A stretch of 64,000 bases of DNA from an uncultured Candidatus Saccharibacteria bacterium (GCA_964631145.1 CAZVXT010000002.1:1140-65139), one strand, 5' to 3'. Positions 14,588 to 61,589 are shown, counted from the stretch's first letter. A program made the numbers and translations. Notes: a model not told the origin generated them from the sequence alone.

Positions 14588-17500
14588 ATGTTTTATACCA
14601 AGCATACTCAAATCAAGAAGCGTAGCGGCGACGTTGTATCATTTGACCCTCAAAAAATTTATATTGCTGTCAGTAGAGCATATCAAGCTGTAACTAAACA
14701 AGAAAACCAACCTCTGTATCAAGAGGTAACCTTGGCTGTGTTATTAGAACTGGATCAAAATTATGCAGATAGATTGCCTAGTGTTGAAGATATTCAAAAT
14801 ATAGTAGAAAAGGAACTTATGGCAAAAGGCTTGTTCGATGTCGCGAAAGACTATATTATTTATCGCTACGAGCATGCTAAGCAGCGCGAAGAAAAAAAGA
14901 TTGAAACTCTAGAAAAATTAGTAACCATTGGTCTAACCATTACAAAGCGTAATGGCAATAAAGAAGTATTTTCTTCTGACAAGGTCCGCAAAACTTTAAG
15001 CCACTTTATCGGTGGTTATGAAAAAGAAATTGATTTAGACGCTGTTGTTACTCAGCTTGGTATGGAAATTTATGATGATATTACTACTGCCGAAATCGAA
15101 CGCGCTTTAATAATGGTGCTTCGCTCTTATGCCGAGCTAGACCCTGCGTATTCTTATGTTGCTGCAAGGGCTTTACTAAACAGAGCTTATAAGCAAGTTA
15201 TTGGTTTTGATAAAATTGACTTTAATAATTTGGATAATCAATTGCGCGATCAGCTTAAATTGAGTATTCAAAACGGTGTTGCTATTGGTAAACTTGATCC
15301 AAAATTGCTGCTTTTTGATATTGATAGATTGGCTGCTGCACTAAACCGTGAACGCGATAATTACCATACTTACTTAAGCGCTCAAACATTAATTGATCGT
15401 TACTTTATTTCTAATCCTGTAACTAAAGACTTGTATGAAGTGCCACAGTTGTTTTGGATGCGTGTAGCAATGGGATTGTCTTTAAATGAAGCAAATAAAG
15501 AAGAAGCTGCTATCCAATTTTATAGCATTATGTCTACTTTGCATTTTGTTCCATCTACCCCAACTTTATTTCATGCAGGAACTACTAGACCACAGCTTTC
15601 ATCTTGTTATTTAACAACCATTGAAGATTCTTTAGATCATATTTTTAAGTCTATTAGTGACAATGCACAGTTATCTAAGTGGAGTGGTGGTATTGGCAAT
15701 GACTGGACCAAAGTACGCGGTACTGGATCTTTGATTAAAGGTACAGGCGTAGAAAGTCAGGGTACTATTCCATTTTTGAAAATTGCTAACGATACTACAG
15801 TTGCAATTAACCGTAGCGGTAAGCGCCGTGGTGCAACTTGTGCTTACATGGAAACTTGGCACTATGACATTGAAGACTTTTTAGAACTTCGTAAAAACAC
15901 TGGAGACGAACGTCGCCGTACTCACGATATGAATACTGCTAATTGGGTGCCAGATTTATTTATCAAGCGTGTAAAGAGCGATGGCATGTGGACTTTATTT
16001 AGTCCTGACGAAACTCCAGATTTGCATGAACTTTATGGACAGGCATTTGAACGTCGTTACGAAGCTTACGAGCAAATGGTTGATGAAGGAAAGATTCGTA
16101 CTTTCAAGCGTATGCCGGCTAAAGATTTGTGGCGCAAAATGCTAACAATGCTTTTCGAAACTGGTCATCCATGGATTACTTTTAAAGACCCTTCTAATGT
16201 CCGCAGTCCTCAAGACCATTGTGGTGTGGTGCATAGCTCTAATTTGTGTACAGAAATTACACTTAATACTTCTGCGGAAGAAACTGCAGTTTGTAATTTA
16301 GGTTCTGTTAACTTGGCAAAGCATATTACCGGCGGTAAATTAGACATGGCGCGTTTACAATACACTGTTGCCACTGCAATGCGTATGCTTGATAATGTTA
16401 TTGACCTTAATTTTTATCCAACTATAGAAGCTCGTAATTCTAACATGAAGCACCGCCCTGTAGGTTTGGGTGTTATGGGCTTTCATGATGCGCTTTATAT
16501 GCAAGGTATTAATTTTGACAGCGAAGCGATGCTAGAATTTGCAGATCGTTGTGGTGAAGCTGTGGCTTATTATTCTATTTTGGGATCTTCTCAATTAGCT
16601 GCAGAACGTGGGAGTTATGCATCATTCCGTGGCAGTAAGTGGGATAGAGGATTGTTGCCATTGGATACTTTAGACTTGTATGAAAAAGAACGTGGTGTCC
16701 CAATTGATGTACCTCGCACTTCAACACTAGATTGGAGTATTGTCAGAGAATCTATTGCTAAATATGGTATGCGTAATTCTAACTGTATGGCGATTGCTCC
16801 AACAGCAACTATTTCTAATATTGCAGGAAGTATTCCTTCTATCGAGCCTATTTATAAAAATATTTATGTTAAGGCTAATCAAAGCGGAGATTTTATTGTT
16901 GTAAATGAATATTTAATTAATGATATGAAAGCTGCTGGTTTATGGAATCCTCAAATGCTTGCCATGCTTAAATATAATGATGGTAATTTGGCGGCTATCC
17001 CGGATATACCTCAGGAGCTTCGAGATAAATATAAAGAAGTGTTTCAAATAGACCCTCGTTGGTTGGTTAAAGCTGCTGCTTACCGCGGTAAGTGGATTGA
17101 CCAAAGCCAATCACTTAACATCTTTTATGGTGGCAAGAGTGGTAAGGATATTAATGATATTTACTTGTACGCTTGGGATATGGGCGTGAAAACTACTTAT
17201 TACTTGCGTACCATGGCGGCAAGCCAAGTAGAAAAGTCTACGGTTAATACTTCCGAATTTGGTAATACTCATTTACGCGGACAAAATATAGAAGTAGAAA
17301 CCATGGTTGTGACAGCTACAGAAAATTCTGCTCAAATAGTTGATGTTGTAGAAACTGTATCAGCGAGCTCTACAAATCCAGAACCTCAGATTCAAAAGAC
17401 TGTAGAAAAATATGAAGTTCCTGCTGTAACAGAGCAGCAGTCCACTGGTAATAATACTATCAAGGTAGAACCATCATTAAATGCTGGGATGGTAAATGGG

Positions 17501-17590
17501 GGATTTGCAGCAGCCGCGGCTTCAGTTCTTGGTACAGAGCAGTTTAAGGTTTGTAGACTTGACGATCCTTACTGTGAAGCTTGCCAGTAG
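14588..17590 (+). CDS. nrdA: Ribonucleoside-diphosphate reductase alpha subunit (class I) with an N-terminal ATP-cone and an unusually long low-complexity C-terminal extension ending in CxxC.
   Basis: It carries an ATP-cone N-terminus, catalytic-core motifs (e.g. 'NLCTEI', 'SNCMAIAPTATIS'), and the C-terminus '...CRLDDPYCEACQ'. A beta-subunit gene follows. Confidence 0.9.
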   Translation: MFYTKHTQIKKRSGDVVSFDPQKIYIAVSRAYQAVTKQENQPLYQEVTLAVLLELDQNYADRLPSVEDIQNIVEKELMAKGLFDVAKDYIIYRYEHAKQREEKKIETLEKLVTIGLTITKRNGNKEVFSSDKVRKTLSHFIGGYEKEIDLDAVVTQLGMEIYDDITTAEIERALIMVLRSYAELDPAYSYVAARALLNRAYKQVIGFDKIDFNNLDNQLRDQLKLSIQNGVAIGKLDPKLLLFDIDRLAAALNRERDNYHTYLSAQTLIDRYFISNPVTKDLYEVPQLFWMRVAMGLSLNEANKEEAAIQFYSIMSTLHFVPSTPTLFHAGTTRPQLSSCYLTTIEDSLDHIFKSISDNAQLSKWSGGIGNDWTKVRGTGSLIKGTGVESQGTIPFLKIANDTTVAINRSGKRRGATCAYMETWHYDIEDFLELRKNTGDERRRTHDMNTANWVPDLFIKRVKSDGMWTLFSPDETPDLHELYGQAFERRYEAYEQMVDEGKIRTFKRMPAKDLWRKMLTMLFETGHPWITFKDPSNVRSPQDHCGVVHSSNLCTEITLNTSAEETAVCNLGSVNLAKHITGGKLDMARLQYTVATAMRMLDNVIDLNFYPTIEARNSNMKHRPVGLGVMGFHDALYMQGINFDSEAMLEFADRCGEAVAYYSILGSSQLAAERGSYASFRGSKWDRGLLPLDTLDLYEKERGVPIDVPRTSTLDWSIVRESIAKYGMRNSNCMAIAPTATISNIAGSIPSIEPIYKNIYVKANQSGDFIVVNEYLINDMKAAGLWNPQMLAMLKYNDGNLAAIPDIPQELRDKYKEVFQIDPRWLVKAAAYRGKWIDQSQSLNIFYGGKSGKDINDIYLYAWDMGVKTTYYLRTMAASQVEKSTVNTSEFGNTHLRGQNIEVETMVVTATENSAQIVDVVETVSASSTNPEPQIQKTVEKYEVPAVTEQQSTGNNTIKVEPSLNAGMVNGGFAAAAASVLGTEQFKVCRLDDPYCEACQ

Positions 17591-17596
17591 GCGATA

Positions 17597-17713
17597 GGTT
17601 TACATTTTTCGATAACTACTTCGTTGTAAATTCCGTTCCTCGTTCGACGTAGTTATTACTACGTCTCACTCAGTACTCATTTACGCCTCGTATTTATTCG
17701 AAAAATGTAAACC
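17597..17713. repeat. Nested palindrome between nrdA and nrdB. A 15-bp perfect outer IR encloses a 12-bp inner IR.
   Basis: ggtttacatttttcg (17597-17611) pairs with cgaaaaatgtaaacc (17699-17713). The inner ataactacttcg (17612-17623) pairs with cgacgtagttat (17645-17656) with one mismatch. Confidence 0.5.
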
Positions 17714-17816
17714 TTAATGTATGCCTCAAACTATACAGTTTCATATAGAGAAAATTAATCAGAAATTATTTTTCATAAAGAGAAGTAAGATCAATAATTA
17801 GAAGACTATTAATAAA

Positions 17817-18851
17817 ATGCCAATTTCAAAAACAGATCAGAGAGTAAATATAAATGACCGCCGTATTATTAACGGTACTGATGCTGATGTAATTCAGCTA
17901 TATCCAATGAAGCATAAGTTTGCTTGGGAAGCATATAATGCGGGCAATGCTAACCATTGGTTGCCTACAGAAATTAGTATGCAAAAAGATATCGAGCAAT
18001 GGAAGTCTTCCGCAGTTCTTAGCGACGAAGAGCGCCGTGCCTTCGAAACAGTGCTTGGATTTTTTACCACAGCCGATTCTATCGCTGCGAATAATATTGT
18101 GATGGCAACATACAAGCACATCACTTCTCCAGAATGTCGCATGTATTTGCTGCGTCAGGCTTATGAGGAAGCCATTCATACTCATGCATATCAATATATT
18201 GTAGAGAGCTTAGCTTTGGATGAAGGAAAGATTTTTAATATGTATCGCGAAGTGGGGGCTATTTATGATAAAGCTTCTTTCGTTTTGACTTTTAATGAAG
18301 GTATTTTTGATCCAAATTTTAAAACAGGAACTCTTCAATCTGATCAAAAGTTCTTAGAAAACATTGTTGTCTTTTCTTTAATTATGGAAGGTATTTTCTT
18401 CTATAGCGCATTTGCTGTTATGTTTGGATTCCAACGTCAAAACAAAATGGTAGGTAGTGCAGAGCAAATCCAATACATCATGCGTGACGAATCTCAGCAT
18501 CTTAACTTTGGTATCAATTTGATTAATACAATCAAAGAAGAACAACCAGAAGTGTGGACTCCAGAGTTTCAGCAACACATCATTAACTTGGTTAAAGAAG
18601 CTGCTGTTATGGAATATACTTTTGCTCAAACTGTTTTCCCTAAAGGTATTTTTGGTATGAATGCTGAAGGTTTTAAGCAGTACATTGAACATATTGCAGA
18701 CCGTCGTTTAAATAGCATTGGCTTGTCAAGTCAATTTAATGTTCAAAATCCTTTCCCATGGATGAGCGAAGCTGTGGATCTTAACAAAGAAAAGAACTTC
18801 TTCGAAACTCGCGTTACCGAATACCAAACCGGCGGTACTTTAGATTGGTAA
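17817..18851 (+). CDS. nrdB: Ribonucleoside-diphosphate reductase beta subunit (class I, ferritin-like di-metal).
   Basis: Metal-ligand motifs 'EAIHTHAYQYI' and 'MRDESQHLNFG' are present, and the C-terminal tail has the typical R2 length. Confidence 0.85.
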   Translation: MPISKTDQRVNINDRRIINGTDADVIQLYPMKHKFAWEAYNAGNANHWLPTEISMQKDIEQWKSSAVLSDEERRAFETVLGFFTTADSIAANNIVMATYKHITSPECRMYLLRQAYEEAIHTHAYQYIVESLALDEGKIFNMYREVGAIYDKASFVLTFNEGIFDPNFKTGTLQSDQKFLENIVVFSLIMEGIFFYSAFAVMFGFQRQNKMVGSAEQIQYIMRDESQHLNFGINLINTIKEEQPEVWTPEFQQHIINLVKEAAVMEYTFAQTVFPKGIFGMNAEGFKQYIEHIADRRLNSIGLSSQFNVQNPFPWMSEAVDLNKEKNFFETRVTEYQTGGTLDW

Positions 18852-29353: not shown

Positions 29354-29740
29354 TGGTGGAGATGGCGGGAGTTAAACCCGCGTCCAAAATTTCTTAACCA
29401 ATTTATTGTTCACAAGATTAGTTCGTTATTTTACTGCATGCCATTCAACGAACAACTAAGCATACAGTTTAAAATACTTCTTTTCGATATTGTTACGTAT
29501 TTCAAATAACAATATTATAGCTTCTATTGTCTAGCTAATCTTTACCCAAAGCAGAGGTAAAGGGCTAGTGCACGAACCAATGTTAGGCAAGTGCAGGTTG
29601 TAGGGTTGCATTAGAAAATGCAGCTACAACTTTGTTCCATGCGTTAGCACGTAAGATTGCTTGTAAGATTAATGAGCTTGCAAGCTGGCTCATCTTGCAT
29701 ATAAAGAGATTGTAAAATTCTGTCAAAATCCAACATCCCC
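29354..29740 (-). ncRNA. ssrA: tmRNA (SsrA).
   Basis: The 5' end GGGGAUGUUGGAUUUUGACAG matches the consensus GGGGcuGAUUcUGGAUUCGAC. The 3' tRNA-like end GGACGCGGGUUUAACUCCCGCCAUCUCCACCA contains the T-arm and ACCA. A candidate tag ORF ...ANAWNKVVAAFSNATLQPALA-UAA is present in the middle. Confidence 0.8.
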
Positions 29741-31114: not shown

Positions 31115-31168
31115 TATATAATTTATATTAGGGTTATTTAAAATTTAACAAAAATCTGCAACAAGTAA

Positions 31169-31251
31169 GACATATGGTATTCTCACTAGTCCTCGCTCTA
31201 TTATATAAATTCAAAAATAGAACTGCGGAATTCGTTCGAATACTATATGTC
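31169..31251 (+). repeat. Conserved structured terminator-like element, copy 1: a long hairpin with a 14-bp outer stem, a conserved internal core, and a T-run.
   Basis: The outer stem is gacatatggtattc / gaatactatatgtc. The core is tcactagtcctcgctcta-[AT loop]-atagaactgcggaattcgttc. It is followed by tttcttttt. Copy 2 is at 38157-38244. Confidence 0.5.
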
Positions 31252-31277
31252 TTTCTTTTTATATCTGTCTTCTAGTA

Positions 31278-31305
31278 AAAAACCCGGCATAAGCCGGGTT
31301 TATTT
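31278..31305 (-). terminator. Intrinsic terminator for the minus-strand gene 31306..31722.
   Basis: cccggc-ataa-gccggg flanked by A/T runs. Confidence 0.55.
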
Positions 31306-31722
31306 TTACTTCTTTTTTGACACTGCCTTTTTTGCAGTTTTTGCTGCCTTGGCTACTTTTTTAGTTGCCTTTGGTAATACTTTTTTTACAGAGTTTTTAG
31401 CAGAATCAAATTGATCTTTAATCGCATCCCAATTAGACTTTAACTCGCTAGTCACCATCACTAATTCTTGAGTGTCGATATTCTTGATGTCTTTATAATT
31501 TTTGGAAATAGTGTCTACGATTTTGTTATAAGAACTTTTAGTTGCTTTTTGGGTTTTGTGTAATTCTGCAACCACATCGTTTTGAAGATCTTTAGCCCAC
31601 TTGCTAATCTTTTTTCTATTTTTAGCATTTTTGCCAGTAAGTAAATATACACTAGCTGCTGCGGCTGCAAGAGCGGTTAATCCTACACCTGCCGCGATAA
31701 TTTGTTTTTGTTGTTTCTTCAT
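31306..31722 (-). CDS. Hypothetical Lys-rich protein with an N-terminal TM/signal segment.
   Basis: 138 aa. The N-terminus is 'IIAAGVGLTALAAAAASVYLL' and the C-terminus is KKxAK-rich. Confidence 0.45.
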   Translation of the reverse strand: MKKQQKQIIAAGVGLTALAAAAASVYLLTGKNAKNRKKISKWAKDLQNDVVAELHKTQKATKSSYNKIVDTISKNYKDIKNIDTQELVMVTSELKSNWDAIKDQFDSAKNSVKKVLPKATKKVAKAAKTAKKAVSKKK

Positions 31723-31726
31723 AAAA

Positions 31727-32008
31727 TTACTTTCTTTTCTTATTTTTAAATATTTGCTTGAGGGACATGTTTTTTATAAAGCCCAGAATAGTTGAAATAC
31801 TAACTCCTTTTTCTTTGATATTGTTTCTTAATTCGCTTAAATCTTCCGAAACAATTTCAGCACCACGCTTGGCAGTATGTAAAACAGTTTTAATAGTCCT
31901 TAATAGGTATATTAAATAGAGTAGGGCAATAATAATTAATGCTGAAATAAGCACTATTGCACTGCCTGTGATTATAAAAAATAAGTCAGATATTGATAAG
32001 CCATTCAT
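31727..32008 (-). CDS. Small membrane protein.
   Basis: 93 aa with one TM 'IITGSAIVLISALIIIALLYLIYLL'. The stop and start are 4 nt from the neighbouring gene. Confidence 0.4.
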   Translation of the reverse strand: MNGLSISDLFFIITGSAIVLISALIIIALLYLIYLLRTIKTVLHTAKRGAEIVSEDLSELRNNIKEKGVSISTILGFIKNMSLKQIFKNKKRK

Positions 32009-32023
32009 AAAGTAATTATACCA

Positions 32024-32578
32024 CTATTTATCTAGATATCTCTTAAATAATTCTTCTAGAACAATTTGATACTGTTTTCGGATATTTTCATCGTAACCAA
32101 TTTCTATAACCTCATCATTAAGATTGGTGGCATTACTTGTCCAATTATAAGATCCGCTAAAGTAAGATTTTTCTGTTACTAAAGTTTTGATATGCATTAT
32201 TGCACTATGATCTTGAAATCCAATAGGAATACCAGCTTGTTGCAACTCTTTGATAATCGCAGCTTGTTCTTTAATTTGAGCAGTTTGATCTTTGTCGACA
32301 ACTCCTTTTATGGTTATGCCTCTATATTTTGCTCCTAGCAAAGCATCTTTAATATCTTGCCGAGTAAAAGTATAAATAGCAAAATAAATAAATTGATCAG
32401 CGTTTTGAATTTCTTTAATTAGCTTTTGATTGGCTTGTGTTTGCTGATTATAGTAAACCCGTACCGCGGGTTTGCTGTAGGAAATTGGTCTGTATACCCA
32501 CGAGTAATATAGCTGTCCAATAGTTGCTATAAGTAGTGCGATAATTACAAAATAAATAATGTCTTTATATATACGCAT
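32024..32578 (-). CDS. Phospholipase D / Nuc-like single-HKD-domain protein with an N-terminal TM.
   Basis: 'MHIKTLVTEKSYFSGSYNWTSNA' fits the HxK-x4-(D/E)-x5/6-GSxN (HKD) motif. The N-terminal TM is 'IIYFVIIALLIATIGQLYY'. Confidence 0.5.
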   Translation of the reverse strand: MRIYKDIIYFVIIALLIATIGQLYYSWVYRPISYSKPAVRVYYNQQTQANQKLIKEIQNADQFIYFAIYTFTRQDIKDALLGAKYRGITIKGVVDKDQTAQIKEQAAIIKELQQAGIPIGFQDHSAIMHIKTLVTEKSYFSGSYNWTSNATNLNDEVIEIGYDENIRKQYQIVLEELFKRYLDK

Positions 32579-32636
32579 GACTTAATTATATTACATACTT
32601 TTCAAGTTTTAATAAAACAGACCAATGCGATCTGTT

Positions 32637-33068
32637 TTATACAAGCTTTTTAATTTCTCTTTTAGTATCTCTGGTTTTGATATATTCTCGTTTGTCTTGC
32701 TTTTTGCGACCTCTACCAATACCAATTTTAATCTTTACTAAATTTTTATTTCCAATATAAATTTCTAATGGCACAATAGTAAAGCCTTTATCTAGTCCTG
32801 TAATTTGATTCAACTCTTTTTGGGTTAAAAGCAATGTGCGGGTGTGAGTCGGGTCGTATCCTTCAGCTGGGGCATATTTATACTGACCAATATGGGTATT
32901 TATTAGCACCACATTGTTGCCATTAATTTTGACATAGCTTCCAGTTAAAGAAACATTGCCTGATTTTGCAGCCTTAACTTCGGCACCAGACAACATTAAA
33001 CCGGCATCATAGGTGTCCTTGATGTCATAGTCTAACCTTGCTCGTTTGTTGGTAGCTAATATCTTCAT
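32637..33068 (-). CDS. smpB: SsrA-binding protein SmpB.
   Basis: Contains 'NKRARLDYDIKDTYDAGLMLSGAEVKAAKSGNVSLTGSYV' and 'DPTHTRTLLLTQKEL', which are SmpB hallmarks. Confidence 0.85.
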   Translation of the reverse strand: MKILATNKRARLDYDIKDTYDAGLMLSGAEVKAAKSGNVSLTGSYVKINGNNVVLINTHIGQYKYAPAEGYDPTHTRTLLLTQKELNQITGLDKGFTIVPLEIYIGNKNLVKIKIGIGRGRKKQDKREYIKTRDTKREIKKLV

Positions 33069-33147
33069 ATATGTATTTTACCAGTTTGAAAAAGCTTTTC
33101 AAATGATATATAATTGCTTAGAAATTTATATTAATAAAGGAGGTTTT

Positions 33148-33294
33148 ATGTCTTTAAAGAAATCTTTATTATTTAAAGAATTGGGAGAACAGCTTAGAAT
33201 ATTGTTTAAAAATATTATGAAAAATTCGGAAAATACCGATTATATTTATTCAGTTTTGAAGCATCTTAAAGTTTTAAATAAAAATCTATCTTAA
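33148..33294 (+). CDS. Candidate small protein of 48 aa with a strong SD.
   Basis: AAGGAGG (33137-33143) lies 4 nt before the ATG at 33148. The product is MSLKKSLLFKELGEQLRILFKNIMKNSENTDYIYSVLKHLKVLNKNLS. The track shows a longer form starting at 33046 that would overlap the smpB start. Confidence 0.35.
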   Translation: MSLKKSLLFKELGEQLRILFKNIMKNSENTDYIYSVLKHLKVLNKNLS

Positions 33295-33335
33295 AATAAA
33301 ACAGTCGCTAGTTTTTTAAGCGGTTGTTTTTATTT

Positions 33336-35711
33336 TTATTGCTTGCTGCTAAAGTTTTTCAAAGCGTTATTATCTTTTGTTGCCCCTAATATATAATAAA
33401 GTCTATTATTCTCTGTAAATGCGTATCCGTGCTCGTATATTCCTTTGATATTAAATTGATAAACATCTTTATTATCAATTTTTTCTTGTGTGATATTAGA
33501 GATATTGCTTTGTGAAGATAAGAAGTTTTTAAGTCCTTCCATATTTGCTCCCTGAGCTTGATATGTTTGAATGTCTATAACTCCATTTGCAGCCTGAAAA
33601 GTTACTTCATTAGCAGTTTGTTTGGTAACTTGCCAATCTTTTGGTTTATCAAAAGAGAATTTTAATTGGTCATTATTGTAATTTTCTACTTGAGGTTGGT
33701 TATCAGTTTGCGGTGCGGTTAAGTTTTGATTACTTGTATTGTTTGAATCTGATGGTTCTTGTCCTCGTAAAAATTCAATTGAATTTCTTGGATCATCTGA
33801 TGAACCGGTGACTACTATTTCTGGGTTAGAAGAATTTTTGTCTTTGGAGTTTTGGCTAGCAATTATAACCCCACCAATTATCACTGCTGCTAACAGAATT
33901 CCTAAGTATAATTTTGCTCTAGATTTTTTTGTAGGTGTAGGAGTACTGGTGTTGTCGTTTGATAGTGGCTGTGCCAGAGGAGTGTAAGAATTGCTCCCAC
34001 TGTTATTTTCTTCAGCATCAGTTTCTGGTCCTTGTTCTTCTGGATGCAGATTTTGGTTATTGGATAATTGGGTAGATACTAATATGCCCAAAACAATAAA
34101 GATAATGCCATAGACCATTACTGTTTTATTAGCATCTACAATACCTTGTTGGGTAATTTGCTTTAGCTCGTTAGTAATAGTTTGAGGTAGTGGGTTATTG
34201 TTGGTGCTAGCATTGCCTCCAAAAGATATATCAGAAATATTTTTGGATACATTTTGCTCAATGGTAGTCTTTGCTTGATCAGGAATTATTTTGCTATCTG
34301 CGATGCTGGTGTTAACATTGCTTGTTAAAGCTGAAAGAAGAACAGCTCCTAATATAGCAGATCCCAATGTTTGCCCAACCATACGTAAGGTATTGTTTAC
34401 TCCAGAAGCTTCACCTGCTTCTTGAGCAGAAACTGCTGACAAAGTAATGTTGCTAACTTGAGCCATAATTAGCCCCATGCCAAAACCAAAAATAATAAAT
34501 CCTGGAGCTAGGTGCCATGCAGTAGCATCAACTTTTAAGCTATAGATTAAAACTAAAAAAGCAAGAGCGCTAAGGCTTAAGCCAATTTGTACTAATCTTT
34601 TTGGTTTGATGTATTTGATTAAGACTGCAGATAGAGGTGCGGCAACTAAAAGAGCTAAGGACATTGGTAATAGTGTTAGTCCTGTGTGTAGAGCATCAAG
34701 TCCACGTACTGCTTGCAAAAATACTGGTATGGTAAAGAACAATCCAGATTGTCCTAGTGCTAAAATTGCTGTTGTTGCCGAGCCAACCACAAATTGTTTG
34801 TTTCTAAATAGATTTAAAGAGAGTAGAGGAGTGGATCCTCTGTTTTCGTAGTATCGTTCCCAAAACATAAAGCCAGCTAAGATAATCAAACCTAGAACGA
34901 TAAACAAAGGTGTGGCAGAAAGACTGCCTAAATTAAGAGTGTGGTGTAAAAATACCAATTGTTCTTTAGCCTTAAACCACCCAAAAGTAGATGCTTGGAT
35001 AAATCCAAAAACAATAGATAATAAACCTAAAGAGGATAATAAAATTCCAATAAAGTCGATTTTTGATTTTGTACGTAGTTGATGATTTTCTTTAATTAAT
35101 AAAGAGCCAATTAAAACTAAGGCTACTACTAAAATATTAATTCTAAAGCCCCAGCGCCAGCTATAATTGGTTGTTAGCCAGCCACCCAAAATTGGACCAA
35201 TTGCAGAAGAGGCCGCTGCGATTCCACCCCATACACCAAAAGCTACGGCACGGTCTCGTCCTTTATAGTTAGTAACCAATAAGGAAGCTGTTGCAGGCAT
35301 CATTAATGCTGCCCCAATTCCTTCTACTATAGCTTCGCCGGTTATCATAAAGCCAATGCTCTTACTGATAGAAGCTAAAAAAGATCCAATAGCAAAAATG
35401 ATTGCACCGATCACAAACATTTTTTTGCGACCAAAAAGATCGCCAAGTCTACCACCGGTAATAGTAAATGCAGCAAGAATTAATGAGTAGATTGTAATTA
35501 CCCATTGCATGCTGTGTAGATTAGTATTTAGATCTTTGATGATTGTTTTAAGGCTGACATTTAGCAAAGTTGTATCAATAACAATAATTGCTAATGCCAA
35601 GCTCAGCACTACTAAACCAGCCCATTTTTTAACAAAAGGCTGGTTGCTCATATTAATGTGCTCTGGTTGCTCATTTTGATCTGATTGAAGAATTGAATTG
35701 TCTACGTTCAT
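33336..35711 (-). CDS. MFS transporter (DHA2/EmrB-like, 14 TMs) with a ~300-aa C-terminal extracytoplasmic extension.
   Basis: 'GRLGDLFGRKKMF' and 'WRWGFRINI' are MFS motifs, and multiple TMs are present. The C-terminal 300 aa is hydrophilic and Asn/Ser/Gln-rich, and follows a final TM. Confidence 0.8.
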   Translation of the reverse strand: MNVDNSILQSDQNEQPEHINMSNQPFVKKWAGLVVLSLALAIIVIDTTLLNVSLKTIIKDLNTNLHSMQWVITIYSLILAAFTITGGRLGDLFGRKKMFVIGAIIFAIGSFLASISKSIGFMITGEAIVEGIGAALMMPATASLLVTNYKGRDRAVAFGVWGGIAAASSAIGPILGGWLTTNYSWRWGFRINILVVALVLIGSLLIKENHQLRTKSKIDFIGILLSSLGLLSIVFGFIQASTFGWFKAKEQLVFLHHTLNLGSLSATPLFIVLGLIILAGFMFWERYYENRGSTPLLSLNLFRNKQFVVGSATTAILALGQSGLFFTIPVFLQAVRGLDALHTGLTLLPMSLALLVAAPLSAVLIKYIKPKRLVQIGLSLSALAFLVLIYSLKVDATAWHLAPGFIIFGFGMGLIMAQVSNITLSAVSAQEAGEASGVNNTLRMVGQTLGSAILGAVLLSALTSNVNTSIADSKIIPDQAKTTIEQNVSKNISDISFGGNASTNNNPLPQTITNELKQITQQGIVDANKTVMVYGIIFIVLGILVSTQLSNNQNLHPEEQGPETDAEENNSGSNSYTPLAQPLSNDNTSTPTPTKKSRAKLYLGILLAAVIIGGVIIASQNSKDKNSSNPEIVVTGSSDDPRNSIEFLRGQEPSDSNNTSNQNLTAPQTDNQPQVENYNNDQLKFSFDKPKDWQVTKQTANEVTFQAANGVIDIQTYQAQGANMEGLKNFLSSQSNISNITQEKIDNKDVYQFNIKGIYEHGYAFTENNRLYYILGATKDNNALKNFSSKQ

Positions 35712-35858
35712 AAAATATAGTTAACGAATTTACATTATACTGTTTTTAAGCATATAAATCAAATCTTGAATTATTATAATTTAACACCCATTATTGGAGT
35801 TTCATAAAATAAAAGACCGTTAAAATTAACGGTCCGAGAAAAGTTTATTTCTCATTTC

Positions 35859-36287
35859 TTATAATCCCGGATCGTTTGTGCCCGGGTCTTCATAAAACAT
35901 TAAAAATATTTGCAGTAGCATAGGGACTGATTTTTTCAACTCAGCTTTTGTTGCCGGAATATTTTGAAATTTTATTTCGACTTGATCATAACCTGCAAAA
36001 AATATCATGCCGGTAAAATCATGATCTGTCATTAAACTTTCCGCTGTGTCTTTGGCTGCAATAACCGGTTGACCAGTTTTAATATCCAGCACAACGTAAA
36101 CTGATTCGCCAGCATCGGTAAAAGGTTTTGAAAATTTAACACTCAGTTTGTTTGGTGTATCGAAGTTAAAAGTTGCCGTAACATCATTTGGCATGACGTA
36201 GGTTTCGTCGTTTGCGTAAGCAAAAGAAGTGGTAGTTAAAACCAACATGGCGCACGCCATGACTAAAATTTTAATGTATTTTTTCAT
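35859..36287 (-). CDS. Secreted protein with a signal peptide.
   Basis: The signal peptide is 'MKKYIKILVMACAMLVLTTTSFAYA', and the protein is 142 aa. A terminator lies at 35808-35834. Confidence 0.5.
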   Translation of the reverse strand: MKKYIKILVMACAMLVLTTTSFAYANDETYVMPNDVTATFNFDTPNKLSVKFSKPFTDAGESVYVVLDIKTGQPVIAAKDTAESLMTDHDFTGMIFFAGYDQVEIKFQNIPATKAELKKSVPMLLQIFLMFYEDPGTNDPGL

Positions 36288-36383
36288 TGGTCCTCCGTTC
36301 TATAATAGAACTTATATTTCTAACATATTTATTATTATTTGTCAATATTGGGATAAAACTAAAATATTTAGTATAATTTAGCT

Positions 36384-38120
36384 ATGAAATTTTATATTGG
36401 ACAGTTAATTTCTGAGGCTATTAAACAAATTAGTCCTGAAGAAAGCGAAGCGATTTTATCTGCTGCTACTTTTGATGTGTCTTATCCAAAACCAGAGTTT
36501 GGTGACTATGCCAGCAATGCAGCTATGATGCTTTTCAAAAATTTTAATGTAAAACCTGCCTCAAACCCCGCAGAATTTGCCAAGTTGATTGCAAAAACTG
36601 CTTTTGAAATTGATAAAAATAAGACTTTTTCTAAAATTGAAAATGCAGGCGGTTTTATTAATTTTACTTTAGCTAATAGTTATTTGCTTTTTAATTTAAA
36701 TCAAATTTTAGAACAGAAAAATAATTTTGGACTGCAAGAAAAAAAGGATGGTGAAAAGATTCTATTAGAATATTTTCAGCCTAATGTTGCCAAGCCTCTT
36801 CATTTGGGTCATTTGGAAAATGGAATTTTTGGTGACAGCTTATTTAAGTTGTTAACAGCGACTGGTAAAATCGTTGAATCAGATACTCATCTAGGGGACT
36901 GGGGAACTCAGTTTGGTCTTTTGTTATTGGCTTTCAAAATGTGGGGAGATATGTCAGTTATCGAGCAGGATCCTATTGTTGAACTTAATAAATTATATGT
37001 AAAAATTAACCAAGAAATTGAAAGCAATCCCGGGCTTCGAGAACAAGGAAAAGCTGAATTTGTAAAGTTGGAGCAGGGTGATCAGCAAAACTATGATCTA
37101 TGGCAAAAATTTAAGGAATGGAGCTGGCAAGAATACGATTTTATGTATAAAGAGGTTGGTATAAGGCAAGCTGATCACGATTTCCCAGAAAGTTTTTATA
37201 TAGACTTGATGCCAAAAGTGTTAGACATGCTTAACTCAAAAGGTTTGCTTGTTCAGTCTGAGGGTGCACAAATTGTCAATTTAGAACAGTTTAATTTGGG
37301 TATTGCTGTTGTGGTAAAGTCCGATGGTGGTACAACATATCTGCTTCGCGATTTAGCCACTTATATTCACCGTAAAGAAATGGGTTTTGCTAAACAGTTT
37401 TATGTAGTTGATGTGCGCCAGTCTCATGCCTTGGCTCAGACATTTAAAATTTTACAGTTGTTAGGTGTTATTGATAATAATTTTGAAGCCAAACATATTG
37501 CTTACGGATTTTTAAAATTACCTGATGGTGCAATGAGTACTCGTAAGGGTACTGTTATCGGTGCCAAAGAGTTATATGAGGATGCGAGAGCTGCGTCTCT
37601 AAAAATTGTAGAACAAAAGAATCCAGATCTAGAAGATAAAGAAAGTGTATCTAAAATAATTGCAAATGCAGCGATAAAATATTTTATTTTATCGCGCAAT
37701 CTAAAAAACGATATTATTTTTGATAAAGAAAATTCTTTATCGTTTGAAGGAAACACTGGTCCTTATTTGCAGTATACTCATGCACGTATTTGTGGGATTA
37801 CCAGAAAGGTGGGGATAGAAGCTTCTAATATAAATCCTAGCTTTGATCAAATCAATACTAGCGAACAGTTAGTACTGAGAAAGCTACAGCAATATCAGGC
37901 AGTTGTTAATTCTGCGGCAGATAATTTCTTGCCAAACACCTTATGTTCTTATTTATTTGAATTGTCTCAAGATTTTAATAATTTTTATGAACATAACTCT
38001 GTGGTTAATGCTGATTCGGAAGGTTCAAAACAGCTTAGGTTGGCTATTTCTGTAGCCACTGCACAAGTTATAAAAAATGGTTTGGACTTATTGGGTATTA
38101 CTGCTCCACAACAGATGTAG
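36384..38120 (+). CDS. argS: Arginine--tRNA ligase.
   Basis: Contains the class I HIGH motif 'PNVAKPLHLGHLENG' and a C-terminal DALR anticodon-binding region. The length of 578 aa is consistent with ArgS. Confidence 0.9.
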   Translation: MKFYIGQLISEAIKQISPEESEAILSAATFDVSYPKPEFGDYASNAAMMLFKNFNVKPASNPAEFAKLIAKTAFEIDKNKTFSKIENAGGFINFTLANSYLLFNLNQILEQKNNFGLQEKKDGEKILLEYFQPNVAKPLHLGHLENGIFGDSLFKLLTATGKIVESDTHLGDWGTQFGLLLLAFKMWGDMSVIEQDPIVELNKLYVKINQEIESNPGLREQGKAEFVKLEQGDQQNYDLWQKFKEWSWQEYDFMYKEVGIRQADHDFPESFYIDLMPKVLDMLNSKGLLVQSEGAQIVNLEQFNLGIAVVVKSDGGTTYLLRDLATYIHRKEMGFAKQFYVVDVRQSHALAQTFKILQLLGVIDNNFEAKHIAYGFLKLPDGAMSTRKGTVIGAKELYEDARAASLKIVEQKNPDLEDKESVSKIIANAAIKYFILSRNLKNDIIFDKENSLSFEGNTGPYLQYTHARICGITRKVGIEASNINPSFDQINTSEQLVLRKLQQYQAVVNSAADNFLPNTLCSYLFELSQDFNNFYEHNSVVNADSEGSKQLRLAISVATAQVIKNGLDLLGITAPQQM

Positions 38121-38156
38121 TTTGATATTTAGCGTAATCACTAAGGTAAAATAAAA

Positions 38157-38244
38157 AGTATTTGATAATATTTTCACTAGTCCTCGCTCTATAAATAAAT
38201 ATATAAATAGAGCTGCGGAATTCGTTCAAATATTATCAAATACT
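38157..38244 (+). repeat. Conserved structured terminator-like element, copy 2. Its outer stem covaries with that of copy 1.
   Basis: The outer stem is agtatttgataatatt / aatattatcaaatact, a different sequence from copy 1 with the same geometry. The core tcactagtcctcgctcta-[AT loop]-atagagctgcggaattcgttc is conserved. It is followed by ttttt. Confidence 0.5.
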
Positions 38245-38689
38245 TTTTAAAAGATTGCAAAAAAAGAAGCCGCTGCGATATTTATTTGATCGCTAGCGGC
38301 TTTTGTCTACCCATTGGTAGACTGCGTCGAATTAGACAAGCGGTATTTCCGTATGCAGACTGTCTGCACTGTGCCCAATTGCACCGGCATCCGTTTGGCG
38401 TATCTATAGCCGGCAGTGTTCGCGGGCGAATCCGCTTCTCTTTTTATCGAAAGGGAACGTGGTTACAAGGAGCATTATAATCGCCGGCTAATATGGCGGC
38501 ATCTTCGCCGATCTTGTACCACATATTAGAATTTGTTCCCCCTTCATCGAAGGAAATATAATATCATAATAACAAGGTTTTGTCAACTGTGTATTGAGTT
38601 CTTTGAGAGAATCTATTTTATATAATCCAAAAAATAAAAAATTGTCACGATGGTAAATTTATTGTAAAATTAAGAAACTATAATTAAAT

Positions 38690-49558: not shown

Positions 49559-50383
49559 ATGAATATAGAAACCTTAAAACAAAAACTTGCAGATTTTGGA
49601 CTTAGCCCAAATAAAACATATGGGCAGAATTTTTTAATGGATGAAATTGTCTTACAGGATATGGTTGATGAAGCTGAAGTTAATAAGGATGATATAGTTA
49701 TTGAAGTTGGTCCTGGTATTGGCAACTTAACTTCATTTTTAATTGCTAAGGCAAAGCAAGTTATTGCTATAGAAAAAGACGATCAATTTGTATCTGTTTT
49801 AAATCATTTAAAAAATAAAAATAAAAATTTCAATTATCAGTTATCCGATATCTTGCATACAGATATTGCAAATTTAGTAGGGGAGTCAAAATATAAAGTT
49901 GTAGCAAATATTCCATACTATATTACAGGTAAGATAATTCAAAAATTTTTATCTTTAAACAATAAACCTCAAAGTCTAACTTTGTTAGTTCAAAAAGAAG
50001 TGGCACAAAATTTAAGTGCTCCAGTAGGCAAATTAAACTTGTTAGCTATATCGGTTCAATTATACGCTGATGTAAAAATGTTAACGGTTGTTCCTGCTAT
50101 GAAATTTTACCCAGCACCGAAAGTTGATAGTGCTGTTGTGCAAATTATTTTGCATGATCACTCTAAGTATGTAAATTATGATGAAAAGAAGTTGTTCAAG
50201 ATTTTGAAAGCTTGCTTCTTAGGAAAGCGAAAACAACTTCATAACACTTTAGTTAATAATTTAAAATTAGAAAAGACTGTGGTAGAGACTGTATTAGATG
50301 AATGCAATATATCAGCCAACTCTCGTCCTCAGCAATTATCGATTGATCAATGGATAAATTTATCAAACAAAATTAATTTATAA
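49559..50383 (+). CDS. rsmA: 16S rRNA (adenine1518/1519-N6)-dimethyltransferase.
   Basis: 'YGQNFLMDEIVLQDMV' and 'VIEVGPGIGNLT' are KsgA/RsmA hallmarks. The start is 2 nt after the pcrA stop. Confidence 0.9.
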   Translation: MNIETLKQKLADFGLSPNKTYGQNFLMDEIVLQDMVDEAEVNKDDIVIEVGPGIGNLTSFLIAKAKQVIAIEKDDQFVSVLNHLKNKNKNFNYQLSDILHTDIANLVGESKYKVVANIPYYITGKIIQKFLSLNNKPQSLTLLVQKEVAQNLSAPVGKLNLLAISVQLYADVKMLTVVPAMKFYPAPKVDSAVVQIILHDHSKYVNYDEKKLFKILKACFLGKRKQLHNTLVNNLKLEKTVVETVLDECNISANSRPQQLSIDQWINLSNKINL

Positions 50384-50401: not shown

Positions 50402-50494
50402 AAAACAAGATTGAATTTTTTGCAACACTTCCAGAACTCTATTATTAAAATTATTTATAGAGTGAGGATGAGTTTAAAAATTCAATCTTGTTTT
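50402..50494. repeat. Perfect 19-bp inverted repeat separated by 55 nt, in a convergent intergenic region. Possibly a bidirectional terminator or long hairpin.
   Basis: aaaacaagattgaattttt (50402-50420) pairs with aaaaattcaatcttgtttt (50476-50494). Confidence 0.5.
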
Positions 50495-50614: not shown

Positions 50615-51109
50615 TTAATATATCAACTTAACTTTATCTCCAACTCTAACATTATTTTTTTGACTCCAATTTCCGTTTACTTCTAAAACATAATCTATCT
50701 CAGATGGGGGATAGAAAACAGGAAGTTGATTGAGTGGAGTTTTGATGTCTGGAGCTGCAACGTTTTGATTTATAGAAATAATTACATTATCCTTAATCCA
50801 AATTAAATCTAAATTAAAGTTCATTTCTTTCATCCAAAACCCAGGAGTATTATTTGCATCTTTTGTAAAATCAAAAAGCATTCCGGCGTCATCATTTAGT
50901 TTGGATCTATTTGATAACCCTTGCTGTTTTTGTTTATCTGTCACAGCTAACTCAACGTTTAATATTTTTGAATTTATATCTAACTGTTTGACATATTTTG
51001 AGCTTGAGATTTTGGTTTGTTCAGTGGCTTGTGATGCGTTTAAGTTTGCTTGATTACTGCATCCAGAAGCCAAGAAAATCAGGCAGAGTAGGGGAAGTAT
51101 TTTTTTCAT
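50615..51109 (-). CDS. DUF192-family lipoprotein.
   Basis: The lipobox is 'LLCLIFLASGCS'. The C-terminal 'GFWMKEMNFNLDLIWIKDNVIISI...YVLEVNGNW...VGDKV' matches DUF192/COG1430. The start was set at MKKILPL (ATG 51109); the track ORF starts at 51325. Confidence 0.55.
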   Translation of the reverse strand: MKKILPLLCLIFLASGCSNQANLNASQATEQTKISSSKYVKQLDINSKILNVELAVTDKQKQQGLSNRSKLNDDAGMLFDFTKDANNTPGFWMKEMNFNLDLIWIKDNVIISINQNVAAPDIKTPLNQLPVFYPPSEIDYVLEVNGNWSQKNNVRVGDKVKLIY

Positions 51110-51206
51110 AAATATAACTTGATTTTTTTGTTTAAATCTGCTATAATTATAATATAAAGTGATAGATTTCTGAAATAAAAACCAAAAAACAACTAAATAA
51201 ATTGCA

Positions 51207-51575
51207 ATGTACAGTAAGTTTGAAAAAAATAAACTTATTAAAATAGCTACTTTTGTAGTGCTTTTTTTGTTGTCAATACAAATAATATCTTTTCCAAAAT
51301 ATACATTGGCTGCTGTTTTGAGCAAGCCATTTGGGGGAGTAATTATATCGTATGTTCCTTCAACACCGCTATGTCCAGTTCCTCATACTTTGATCTATGA
51401 TTTTAAAACAAGGTTGTCATTTGGGATTGCTGTTTTGCCATCGTCTGTAGTTTATGCGTATGCAAATTTATTTAAGCCTGGTACATTTGTTTTGGGTAAA
51501 GCTGGTACAGTAAGCATTACATGCGCATTGCCATATTTAATTTATCCAATTATACAAGTAGGTACTTCTAAATAA
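51207..51575 (+). CDS. Small membrane/secreted protein, the first gene of the T4SS-like operon.
   Basis: 122 aa with an N-terminal TM 'IATFVVLFLLSIQIISF' and a second hydrophobic stretch 'FGIAVLPSSVVYAYA'. Confidence 0.4.
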   Translation: MYSKFEKNKLIKIATFVVLFLLSIQIISFPKYTLAAVLSKPFGGVIISYVPSTPLCPVPHTLIYDFKTRLSFGIAVLPSSVVYAYANLFKPGTFVLGKAGTVSITCALPYLIYPIIQVGTSK

Positions 51576-58597: not shown

Positions 58598-58600
58598 ATT

Positions 58601-59605
58601 ATGAACAATGAAGAACTATTAAAAGATGCTTTACAAAGATTGAATGCCAAAAGTGCAGTCGAGCTTTTAAATATGTCTGAAAAAAATCCAAGCATGAACC
58701 TGGATAATATTACTAAGATAAGATTATCTTATGTAAGGATGAATAGTCTTTCGTTGAACAGGCTTACAGATTTGATGCAGCAATCCATTTTGCAAAGCTA
58801 TACTCTGCCAGATTTTCTATTATCAGAAAAAATAGAAACATTTGCAGAGCTGTTATTTGATCCAGAGCAAGAAATTGAGCTTTACGATCGTATAGGATTT
58901 ATTTTGAGCGGCAGCACTGAACGCGTGGTAACGCAAAGTATTACTATTAATGGTAAGGCGGAAGTTGCTACAATTAGCAATTTTATTGCTGACTATATTA
59001 ATACCTTTAATGAAGTTGACCGAGATGCTTTAACTCAACTTAAATATATTAACAATTCTCCTAATGTTAAAGATTTATTAGAAGTTCAGAGAGCTGTAAT
59101 CAAAGATTTGCTTAAGCTATATGATAAAGCTGAAGATATGGTAGTAATGTGGCAAACTCTTCCTACTGTAGAAAATCCAAAACAAATTGAAGAGTTGTTT
59201 GATATACAAGATTATTACCCAGGAATAGAAAAAGCAGAAGAATCAACTGGTTCTAAGGATGCATTTAATGATCAGAGTCAAAATCAAAATGTAATAAAAG
59301 AAGAGCCGGCTAAGGCTGTTGTGCATCAACGCTCAGAACAGCCTGTACTTCCAAAACGTGTTGTCCAACCTATCCCAACAAGGGTAAATGAGCCTCGTGT
59401 TATAGAGGCTTTGACTCCTCAAAATAAAACAAGTACCCCAGCCATGGATGTCTTACGAGCAAATTATTCTCCAAAAGGAATTATGCAGAGCAATGGTACT
59501 AATATAAAAATTAAAGATGAAGTAGACAGATTACAGGAAGATCAAAAAAAATTTGCTGATATTCAAAAAAAGTTAGATGAATTAAAGACTAGAAAGTCTA
59601 AATAA
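58601..59605 (+). CDS. Hypothetical T4SS-operon protein.
   Basis: 334-aa ORF located 4 nt after the previous gene, with a charged C-terminal coiled coil. Confidence 0.45.
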   Translation: MNNEELLKDALQRLNAKSAVELLNMSEKNPSMNLDNITKIRLSYVRMNSLSLNRLTDLMQQSILQSYTLPDFLLSEKIETFAELLFDPEQEIELYDRIGFILSGSTERVVTQSITINGKAEVATISNFIADYINTFNEVDRDALTQLKYINNSPNVKDLLEVQRAVIKDLLKLYDKAEDMVVMWQTLPTVENPKQIEELFDIQDYYPGIEKAEESTGSKDAFNDQSQNQNVIKEEPAKAVVHQRSEQPVLPKRVVQPIPTRVNEPRVIEALTPQNKTSTPAMDVLRANYSPKGIMQSNGTNIKIKDEVDRLQEDQKKFADIQKKLDELKTRKSK

Positions 59606-59613
59606 ATTTTGTT

Positions 59614-60408
59614 ATGAACGAATTAAAAGTTCGACAATTAAAACAGCTGATAAATATTAGTACCGTGTTAAGCCCTCAAGAAAAACAAGAATGGCTTGGT
59701 CTTTTAGAATTGATGAATGATAAACAACTTACTGAATTAGAGCATATATTGGTGCCTAAACCTGCTGTAGAGCCTAAAGTAGAAACAGGTGAAGTAAAGA
59801 CACCGTCTTTAAGCCATATTTCTAGTTTGCCAAATAAAGTGACTATTCCTCAAAACTTTATTAAGTCCACAATTCCTATTAAAGAATCTACTACAGAACC
59901 GATAAAAGTTGCTGTAAATCCTTTAGAAGAAAAACAAAAACAAGCTATCATTAGCAATGAGTCAAATATGGCAGTTGCAGATGGGAAAAATATTGAAGTT
60001 TCTGCTGGGGTGCAACCAAAAAAACAAATTTCAATAATTAGAACTCCTCCTAAAACACCTGATATTAAAGCTGATTTAAATAATATCGAAAGAAATAATA
60101 CAGATATCCCTGAGGTTATACCACCTCCTGCAGAGTTATCAATCGAAGAATTAGAAAATTTATCAGTATCAAATCTAAGAAATTGGGGAGCAAAAGCATT
60201 TATAAAAGTCTTAAGTAAAACAGCATCTGTATATGGTTATTTTGTAACATTGCAAGAATTTGAAAAGAGCCAGTTATATAAAGATTATTTAGAGTATGGT
60301 AGAACCGGCTTGATGATGAATGGTGATTCTAATAAATTAAAGTTAACTCATTCGGAATTTGAGACAATCATAGATTCTATTGCTGCGATGCAGGTTAATA
60401 AGACTTAA
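59614..60408 (+). CDS. Hypothetical T4SS-operon protein.
   Basis: 264-aa ORF. Confidence 0.45.
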   Translation: MNELKVRQLKQLINISTVLSPQEKQEWLGLLELMNDKQLTELEHILVPKPAVEPKVETGEVKTPSLSHISSLPNKVTIPQNFIKSTIPIKESTTEPIKVAVNPLEEKQKQAIISNESNMAVADGKNIEVSAGVQPKKQISIIRTPPKTPDIKADLNNIERNNTDIPEVIPPPAELSIEELENLSVSNLRNWGAKAFIKVLSKTASVYGYFVTLQEFEKSQLYKDYLEYGRTGLMMNGDSNKLKLTHSEFETIIDSIAAMQVNKT

Positions 60409-60454
60409 AATGGTATAATTATTAAGGAGATGTTTATTTAAATTATAAGTAATT

Positions 60455-60901: not shown

Positions 60902-60906
60902 CTTAC

Positions 60907-61587: not shown

Positions 61588-61589
61588 TT

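Follow-up and report, generated by a model that had tools for sequence, protein, structure and literature searches.

A dispersed hairpin repeat with a conserved core and copy-specific outer stems in an uncultured Patescibacteria bacterium

Two related hairpin elements, one behind doxX and one behind argS, had been predicted in a 64,000-nucleotide stretch of DNA from an uncultured Candidatus Saccharibacteria bacterium (GCA_964631145.1, CAZVXT010000002.1:1140-65139; the whole stretch is called the window). We found that they belong to a family with four known members (n=4), each of about 90 bases and dispersed between genes. Three lie in the window (copies 1 and 2 on the + strand, copy 3 on the - strand) and the fourth lies on another contig, L003. 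In every member a core of 54 nt is enclosed by a long inverted repeat of a sequence peculiar to that copy, and this combination of a conserved core with unique perfect stems is the unusual feature of the family. Tentatively, and with a little less than even confidence, we regard the element as a lineage-restricted, low-copy, dispersed palindromic repeat of an uncultured bacterium of the candidate phyla radiation (CPR; Patescibacteria), similar in kind to repetitive extragenic palindromes (REPs) and miniature inverted-repeat transposable elements (MITEs), which would be co-transcribed into the 3' untranslated regions (UTRs) of its neighbours. The functional RNA proposed in the original prediction is, on balance, less likely than a genomic repeat of this REP/MITE-like kind.

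Members and structure of the repeat family

Both predicted copies were located where they had been reported, behind genes for a DoxX family protein and arginyl-tRNA synthetase. The left core block TCACTAGTCCTCGCTCTA has two exact matches in the window, at 31183 and 38174, compared with 0.04 matches expected from shuffles of the window when up to 3 mismatches are allowed, and the right block CTGCGGAATTCGTTC likewise has two, at 31223 and 38213. A shared core had been predicted on the strength of these two copies and was recovered with a single difference in the core arms, TAGAAC in copy 1 and TAGAGC in copy 2. BLAST similarity between the copies ends exactly at the hairpin edge. In the L003 copy the core arms are identical to the canonical ones, the loop is different and the outer stem is another new sequence. 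L003 is a contig of a metagenome-assembled genome labelled Candidatus Saccharibacteria, with 34% G+C, similar to the window.

A covariance model of the kind suggested with the original prediction was built from the three canonical copies (copies 1, 2 and L003; model R1) and run unfiltered on the window, where it found the diverged copy 3 (Table 1). The reservation that only two copies might exist was removed by copy 3 and the L003 member. A second model, made from four sequences (the R1 copies plus copy 3; model R2), found nothing in the window beyond the three known copies.

Table 1. Coordinates of the repeat copies and of the terminators that follow two of them (positions in the window).
Feature	Position	Strand	Basis and remarks
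Copy 1, whole hairpin	31160-31260	+	inverted repeat; R1 101.8 bits, E = 3.5e-21
Copy 1, core	31183-31237	+	TCACTAGTCCTCGCTCTA, then 17-nt AT loop, then TAGAACTGCGGAATTCGTTC
Copy 2, whole hairpin	38152-38249	+	inverted repeat; R1 105.1 bits, E = 6e-22
Copy 2, core	38174-38227	+	exact-block matches and alignment
Copy 3, whole hairpin, diverged	50402-50494	-	R1 50.3 bits, E = 4e-9 (match 50406-50490); R2 86.9 bits
Copy 3, core	50421-50475	-	covariance-model alignment and pair table
Bidirectional G+C-rich terminator behind copy 1	31280-31301	both	outside the repeat; orthologous to L024 1241-1268
G+C-rich inverted repeat AAGCCGCTGCGA / TCGCTAGCGGCTT between A-run and T-run	~38259-38305	both	outside the repeat

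The core is a 54-nt imperfect palindrome in which an AT loop separates two arms of 19-20 nt that contain a bulge and mismatches at fixed positions. The outer inverted repeat is 16-22 bp long, near-perfect and different in each copy, and the whole interrupted hairpin comprises about 35-40 bp. This architecture, with an arm spacing of 54-55 nt, is common to all four members. The arms of copy 2 (38152-38173 and 38228-38249) are 22 nt long, 100% complementary and 54 nt apart; those of copy 1 (31160-31182 and 31238-31260) are 23 nt long, 87% complementary and 55 nt apart, with a well-paired part of 16 pairs including one G.T (31167-31182 with 31238-31253); and those of copy 3 (50402-50420 and 50476-50494) form a perfect 19-bp stem of new sequence. 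In a repeat scan the arms of copies 1 and 2 ranked among the longest inverted repeats of the window, and those of copy 3 were recovered too. The outer stems had been described as unrelated, perfect helices of 14-17 bp. Their sequences are indeed unrelated and complementary, but the arms extend to 22-23 nt and complementarity in copy 1 reaches only 87%.

Predicted folding was strong on both strands. As + strand RNA, copies 1 and 2 gave -27.0 kcal/mol (z = -6.0) and -33.2 kcal/mol (z = -9.1), compared with -30.5 and -38.6 kcal/mol on the - strand, and on either strand both were better than every one of 200 dinucleotide shuffles (z -6 to -10). Copy 3 gave -30.9 kcal/mol in the reverse-complement form and -30.8 kcal/mol on the other strand (z = -7 to -8.5), and the L003 copy gave -39.5 and -23.4 kcal/mol, respectively. 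The reverse-complement strand was thus the more stable by 3-16 kcal/mol in three of the four copies and equal in copy 3. On that strand the 2x2 loop beside the outer stem can become a tandem G.A (5'-GA/5'-GA), which partly explains the better folding. Single-stranded DNA folds were also significant (z = -4 to -10). A small open reading frame (ORF) within the element was considered and rejected, as the reading frames differ between copies and are not conserved. The loops of the element carry EcoRI and SpeI hexamers; GAATTC is under-represented in the window (6 sites, compared with ~22 expected from base composition), and two of the six sites lie inside hairpin cores.

Pairing statistics were computed on the four-sequence alignment. 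Across the four copies 94.4% of cells paired, compared with 75% in column shuffles (none of 500 reached the observed value) and with 37-42% when the 3' partners were slid by 1-3 columns. The covariation that had been proposed for the outer helix holds on four copies, with 13 of 15 pairs altered on both sides. Within the inner stem, seven pairs were invariant and one was compensatory (G-C to A-U, in copy 3). The 38 arm positions, unpaired ones included, showed 0-1 differences among the three canonical copies, compared with 4-5 differences per pair of copies (~25% of positions) in the AT loop of 16-17 nt. As the arms are far steadier than the loop, either the arms, unpaired bases included, are constrained or the loop is hypermutable. 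Copy 3 keeps the helices AC/GU, UCC/GGA and CUCUAU/AUAGAG, and its internal-loop sequences differ from those of the canonical core. The conserved inner stem and internal loop of the original prediction were borne out in part: the arms are near-invariant in three copies and one inner pair is compensated, but the loops of copy 3 are not those of the other members.

The outer stems contain 3 G.T/G.U-type pairs and 1-2 mismatches in ~75 pairs, and two of them are perfect (22/22 and 19/19). The few wobbles fall on different strands in different copies. Two positions of the L003 stem are G.U on the reverse-complement strand and A.C on the other, and the wobbles of copy 1 are split, with one outer-stem position that is G.U only on the + strand and one inner-stem position that is G.U only on the - strand. 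Judged by this distribution, the stems look as though they were perfect at formation and are now decaying by transitions, rather than being kept through G.U pairs on one RNA strand. Since the four outer stems are unrelated and stand at non-orthologous sites, the covariation shows a perfect stem at each site and not compensated substitution over time. The family is in this respect a caution that covariation statistics on paralogous repeat copies may overstate the evidence for functional RNA.

Further members were sought widely. The exact two-sided core pattern was scanned in 185,579 species genomes (one per species), in JGI metagenome contigs and in IMG/VR. The species genomes yielded 1 true match (L003) and 4 G+C-rich chance matches, and the metagenome contigs and IMG/VR gave chance matches only; the pattern search for the core that had been proposed, carried through window, species genomes, metagenomes and viral contigs, thus added one genome. 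A looser skeleton pattern and both half-site 15-mers likewise gave only chance matches in viral contigs, and R2 found no member in 455 kb around the viral half-site matches. No member was found by R1 or R2 in ~90 kb of related and other loci, no further copy lies in the 7.6 kb past the right end of the window (L021, same contig), and BLAST against phage and plasmid collections returned nothing relevant. Rfam 15 at gathering thresholds identified only tmRNA and tRNA in the whole window, and the element matched none of its families, including the hammerhead, twister, pistol, hatchet, HDV-like and hairpin ribozymes, riboswitches and small RNAs (sRNAs). In permissive E-value mode, copy 1 retrieved generic hairpins far below threshold (best FasX, 29.9 bits compared with 100), the copy 2 region gave nothing at E <= 0.1, and L003 gave tRNA only.

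A second long hairpin of similar general architecture was seen once in the window, at 17596-17714, between nrdA (14588-17590) and nrdB (17817-18851). An imperfect palindrome of 85 nt is enclosed by its outer stem, a perfect 17-bp helix (AGGTTTACATTTTTCGA / TCGAAAAATGTAAACCT), and the hairpin folds to -39 kcal/mol (+) and -49 kcal/mol (-), with z = -6 to -8. Membership of the family was rejected, as similarity was not significant (159 of 500 shuffles scored as well).

Genomic sites, relatives and neighbouring features

All three window copies are flanked by convergent units (doxX/ytxH-like, argS/small minus-strand unit and rsmA/DUF192). Copy 1 follows the doxX stop (31114) and precedes a bidirectional terminator that doxX has in common with the convergent ytxH-like gene; copy 2 begins 32 nt 3' of the argS stop (38120); and copy 3 lies between rsmA (49559-50383, +) and the DUF192 gene (50615-51325, -). 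The element stands in one orientation, the + form, after doxX and argS, and in the reverse-complement or - form after rsmA, where it begins 20 nt past the stop. On L003 the reverse-complement form is preceded at ~30 nt by a 10/12 sigma-70-like promoter (TTGAAT-17-TATAAT, L003 44-72) and followed by a tRNA-Gln fragment and then an intact tRNA-Gln, the copy being 150 nt from tRNA-Gln. The neighbours of the four copies (doxX, argS, rsmA/DUF192 and tRNA-Gln) are functionally unrelated. Replication direction was ruled out as the determinant of orientation, as the copies stand in both directions although GC skew stays positive across the entire window.

T-runs are found 3' of copies 1-3 and A-runs 5' of copies 2 and 3; the L003 copy has no T-run. 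The T-runs reported after copies 1 and 2 are thus present, and a separate conventional terminator follows each of these copies 10-25 nt further on, which would make the proposed terminator module unneeded at both sites. The G+C-rich inverted repeat beyond copy 2 serves as terminator for the small minus-strand unit and probably for argS too. Transcription of the copies was deduced from the positions of genes and terminators: with a stop codon before them and a real terminator after them, copies 1 and 2 almost certainly appear in transcripts as the + form. Copy 3 is the sole strong hairpin of its spacer, in which no other terminator-like site was seen. The regular terminators of this genome have G+C-rich stems of 6-10 bp and loops of 3-7 nt. 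U-tracts behind copies 1-3 are as expected of intrinsic terminators, yet the stems are long and A+T-rich; copy 3 could be the only bidirectional terminator of its spacer.

Five syntenic relatives (L018, L019, L020, L024 and L025) lack the element at the corresponding intergenic sites. The argS-ileS spacer measures 36-80 nt in L018, L019 and L020, and the two genes abut in L024, compared with 570 nt in the window, where the spacer contains the element, a terminator and the small minus-strand unit. The doxX-ytxH spacer of L024 is 63 nt long and consists of ~25 nt and a terminator orthologous to that of the window (AAAAAACCAGGCGCAATGCCTGGTTTT compared with AAAAAACCCGGCATAAGCCGGGTTT) with no hairpin element, and that of L025 is 21 nt long. 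Dispersed copies at four sites, two of which are empty in 2-4 relatives each, are the pattern expected of a mobile repeat. The nearest ArgS homologues are 61-63% identical, the closest named ones belong to Ca. Doudnabacteria (56-60% identical), and DoxX homologues include Saccharimonadales; these similarities place the window in a CPR/Patescibacteria genome. The window also matches a Logan contig from SRR12712853.

The small lineage-specific unit in the argS-ileS spacer (38255-38590, minus strand) has no counterpart in the relatives, whose spacers are 0-80 nt. It comprises a near-consensus promoter with an upstream TG (TTGACA-17-TATTAT, 38586-38558), a Shine-Dalgarno-like AAGGGGGA followed by a 26-codon ORF (38444-38524, MWYKIGEDAAILAGDYNAPCNHVPFR), a G+C-richer stretch of ~180 nt that folds well (z = -4.1 for 298 nt) and the terminator at ~38305-38259. 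The unit has no Rfam match; it may encode a small protein, a toxin-like peptide or an sRNA.

On L003, a duplicate of ~30 nt of the tRNA-Gln 5' half (~228-258) lies upstream of the intact tRNA-Gln (350-424) and is followed by two small G+C-rich hairpins (228-345 region). The interval 350-7911 comprises this tRNA and, downstream of it, a prophage-like region that encodes a MamI-type restriction enzyme, methyltransferases, a large serine recombinase and terminase subunits. The hairpin element does not belong to this region, from which the tRNA separates it. The restriction enzyme itself had no exact match in the protein collection searched, and homologues of it that are 88% identical occur on contigs ending short of the element position.

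Several other features of the window were recorded. Copy 1 lies between the tmRNA gene (29354-29740, -; Rfam 108.6 bits; tag peptide AFSNATLQPALA) and smpB (32637-33068, -), which are <3.5 kb apart. Copy 3 is ~4 kb upstream of a type IV secretion/conjugation-like cluster, to which no link was found; this cluster runs from ~54479 to 64000 and on into L021 to ~13600, with PrgI-like, TraC-like and VirB4/TraG-type ATPases and very large ORFs (1372 aa). Such systems are common in Saccharibacteria-like CPR genomes. The left end of the window is an integrated mobile island (1-6867) bounded by tRNA-Asn (6868-6942, -), with a large serine recombinase (5248-6909) overlapping the 3' end of the tRNA, a helix-turn-helix gene, two N4/N6 DNA methyltransferases (261-1043 and 1046-1876) and a conserved 76-nt hairpin (3921-3996). 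The Logan contig of the same genome stops exactly at the island boundary. The island recurs on other contigs (L014-L017), with different neighbouring genes where the sequence extends (L014 compared with L016).

Nature and origin of the repeat

We hypothesize that the heritable, propagated unit is the 54-nt core, copies of which would have been set down at unrelated intergenic sites and would survive mainly at convergent gene ends, where no promoter is interrupted. The element would be carried in mRNA 3' ends (for L003, in a 5' leader); its long, interrupted hairpin could fold as RNA or as single-stranded DNA, and its effect would be a generic one, as a 3'-end stabiliser, an auxiliary or bidirectional terminator (plausible at copy 3) or an RNase III substrate. 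For the perfect flanks peculiar to each copy, the simplest explanation would be a DNA-level process; slow compensatory evolution at the RNA level accounts for them less well. Our preferred candidate is replication template switching across the pre-existing core hairpin, and the other is an insertion mechanism that builds or requires a palindrome. Template switching across an existing hairpin can make or extend perfect stems in one event and so mimic multi-base compensatory change (Monttinen & Loytynoja 2022, PMC8794818). Insertion into the loops of ordinary terminators was rejected, and insertion into pre-existing palindromes is unlikely, as the terminators of this genome are short and G+C-rich and the empty L024 site has no long palindrome. 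The original prediction had listed a small mobile RNA element among its options; a dispersed repeat of roughly that sort comes close to the reading we favour, though as a repeat of DNA.

Several observations weigh against this reading. Template switching would need four independent events of similar size, and in local alignments of the arms with their 80-nt flanks the similarity exceeded the null in copy 3 alone, and there only marginally (p ~0.02), both of which count against that origin of the flanks. Terminal inverted repeats in the MITE sense are absent, the ends being the variable part, and no shared or copy-specific direct repeat (target-site duplication) borders the hairpins. Copy number is low (~3 per 64 kb). 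No transposase, Y1/HUH enzyme, RAYT, reverse transcriptase, integron integrase, Xer-type recombinase or Nop-domain protein is encoded in the 71 kb made up of the window and the 7.6 kb beyond it, the sole recombinase there being the large serine recombinase of the unrelated island at 1-6867. A sequence-specific partner, RNA or protein, would also be in keeping with the conservation of the arms, in which unpaired bases are conserved too. The relatives are distant (ArgS 61-63%, DoxX 65-66% identity), and absence of the element from them consequently shows lineage restriction and not recent insertion. To judge by the names SRP285395 and SRR12712853, the window and L003 may share a study, or even a population, as their source, in which case conservation of the core between genomes or species is not established.

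The most serious alternative, though one we consider unlikely, is a dedicated structured RNA, either a protein- or RNA-binding module or a processing site in mRNA 3' UTRs, with the internal loops as recognition surface and an outer stem and apical loop that need only pair or exist. It would account well for arm positions that are identical in three copies even where unpaired while the apical loop is ~25% different, for the complete covariation of the outer stem and the G-C to A-U change in the inner one, and for the almost certain transcription of copies 1 and 2 in the + form (stop codon to terminator position). The reverse-complement form, with its possible tandem G.A, folds better in three of four copies, and the L003 promoter reads into this form, whose two G.U pairs would be A.C on the other strand. 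Against it, the strand likely to be transcribed varies: behind doxX and argS it is the + form, but behind rsmA, as in L003, the - form. Nor do the neighbours have a gene class in common, and the orthologous sites in five relatives are without the element, which was found in only 1-2 genomes of very large collections and matches no Rfam family. Copy 3 keeps the helices and loses the internal-loop sequences, so that the supposed recognition surface is not family-wide. The claim that compensatory variation here is the signature of a functional RNA structure is not supported by these findings: the stems are unrelated, non-orthologous and almost purely Watson-Crick, orientation is inconsistent, the neighbours are unrelated and the sites are empty in five relatives.

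A DNA-level site that acts as a folded strand or cruciform, such as an HUH/Y1 (RAYT, IS200/IS605-like) hairpin or an attC-like recombination site at junctions of acquired DNA, seems improbable to us. REP, IS608-end and attC hairpins are built in the same way as the element, which is an imperfect hairpin with a bulge, a variable loop and mismatches at fixed positions; the outer stems are perfect Watson-Crick helices and the single-stranded DNA folds are significant. Copy 2 lies at the edge of a ~500-bp lineage-specific insertion between argS and ileS, and the L003 copy is 150 nt from a tRNA-Gln carrying a prophage with a large serine recombinase. However, the attC consensus (RYYYAAC...GTTRRRY) is missing, GTTCRAA having C where R is required, and there is no cassette array, the two direct copies flanking conserved housekeeping genes. 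No Y1 transposase, IntI or Xer-type gene is near any copy. Relatives have doxX at the same place without the element, so that doxX is no recently acquired cassette, and orientation is independent of replication direction, GC skew being uniformly positive. Far less credible still are ordinary intrinsic terminators with an accidental likeness, chance, or a very recent local duplication. The T-runs behind copies 1-3, the A-runs before copies 2 and 3 and the position of copy 3 as sole strong hairpin between two convergent genes are in keeping with terminators, but the regular ones of this genome are short and G+C-rich with nothing like the 54-nt conserved core, a regular terminator stands right behind copies 1 and 2, and the L003 copy has no T-run. 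Local duplication would have duplicated the stems too, and chance is ruled out by the shuffles.

There is also a small chance that the family is something new: either a very small mobile or self-propagating hairpin whose establishment itself makes a perfect local inverted repeat (with the core hairpin as primer of fold-back or template-switch synthesis, for instance), or an RNA module specific to CPR bacteria that a lineage-specific protein reads whichever way it is oriented. We know of no bacterial repeat family described with a copy-specific perfect inverted repeat generated on establishment. Repeats and non-coding elements of CPR bacteria are almost undescribed, and our search of the literature on them found nothing describing such elements. 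If the establishment of the element does make its perfect flanks, it would represent a new palindrome-forming mechanism in bacteria; otherwise it would simply add to the small hairpin repeats confined to single lineages, and its influence on mRNA 3' ends would be local at most.

Comparison with known systems

TIGR arrays, which encode Tas/Nop-domain guide RNAs in CPR bacteria and phages, consist of tandem ~36-nt units with alternating edge and loop repeats beside a Nop-domain gene (PMC12045711). Here the copies occur singly at scattered sites and not in a tandem array, and no Nop-domain ORF was found in the window. TIGR arrays, attC sites, the k-turn, SECIS elements and retron non-coding RNA were each rejected on anatomy. 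The repeat and attC are both imperfect palindromes that could work as a folded strand, with fixed unpaired bases and a variable apical part, placed just after a gene. In attC the structure is kept and the sequence is variable save for the R''/R' boxes, whereas in our repeat the internal sequence is kept and the boxes are missing: the right end reads GTTCGAA, GTTCAAA or GTTCTTG (C at the fourth position) and the left end is without an AAC box. There is no array and no intI nearby, and the window copies stand 7 and 12 kb apart among conserved housekeeping genes.

The hairpins left by template switching resemble the outer stems in having perfect reverse-complement stems around or next to an existing hairpin, which mimic multi-base compensation. 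Template switching is a mutational mechanism and not an element family, however, and would explain the outer stems only.

Bacterial MITEs and palindromic repeats such as Correia/NEMIS, ERIC, RUP, BOX and the Rickettsia RPE are likewise ~100 bp, non-coding, dispersed, hairpin-forming and intergenic; they are transcribed with neighbouring genes, and the same sites are empty in relatives. MITEs have conserved terminal inverted repeats and flanking target duplications, whereas in our family the conserved part is internal and the termini vary, the terminal 15-22 bp having 27-40% in-register identity between copies, about the level expected for AT-rich composition. With REP, BIME and REPIN elements the repeat shares a short imperfect hairpin with conserved mismatches, a variable loop and a lineage-specific sequence; both lie between genes at their 3' ends, frequently where two genes converge, and with no fixed orientation. 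REPs are co-transcribed into mRNA, where they act as stabilising or terminating hairpins, and the elements of this group are mobilised by RAYT Y1 transposases, whose genes as a rule have REPs beside them. REPs typically have tens to hundreds of copies, a 5' GTAG-type tetranucleotide and a RAYT gene, none of which is present in the 71 kb here: the foot reads TCAC/GTTC and not GTAG, the 64 kb contain 3 copies and the further 7.6 kb contain none, and no cognate RAYT (PF01797) was found among the ORFs of the window and of the 7.6 kb beyond. Unlike the repeat described here, REPs are without a copy-specific perfect inverted repeat around them. The repeat fails the formal definitions of both MITE and REP and is filed under neither; it is in its behaviour that we liken it to them.

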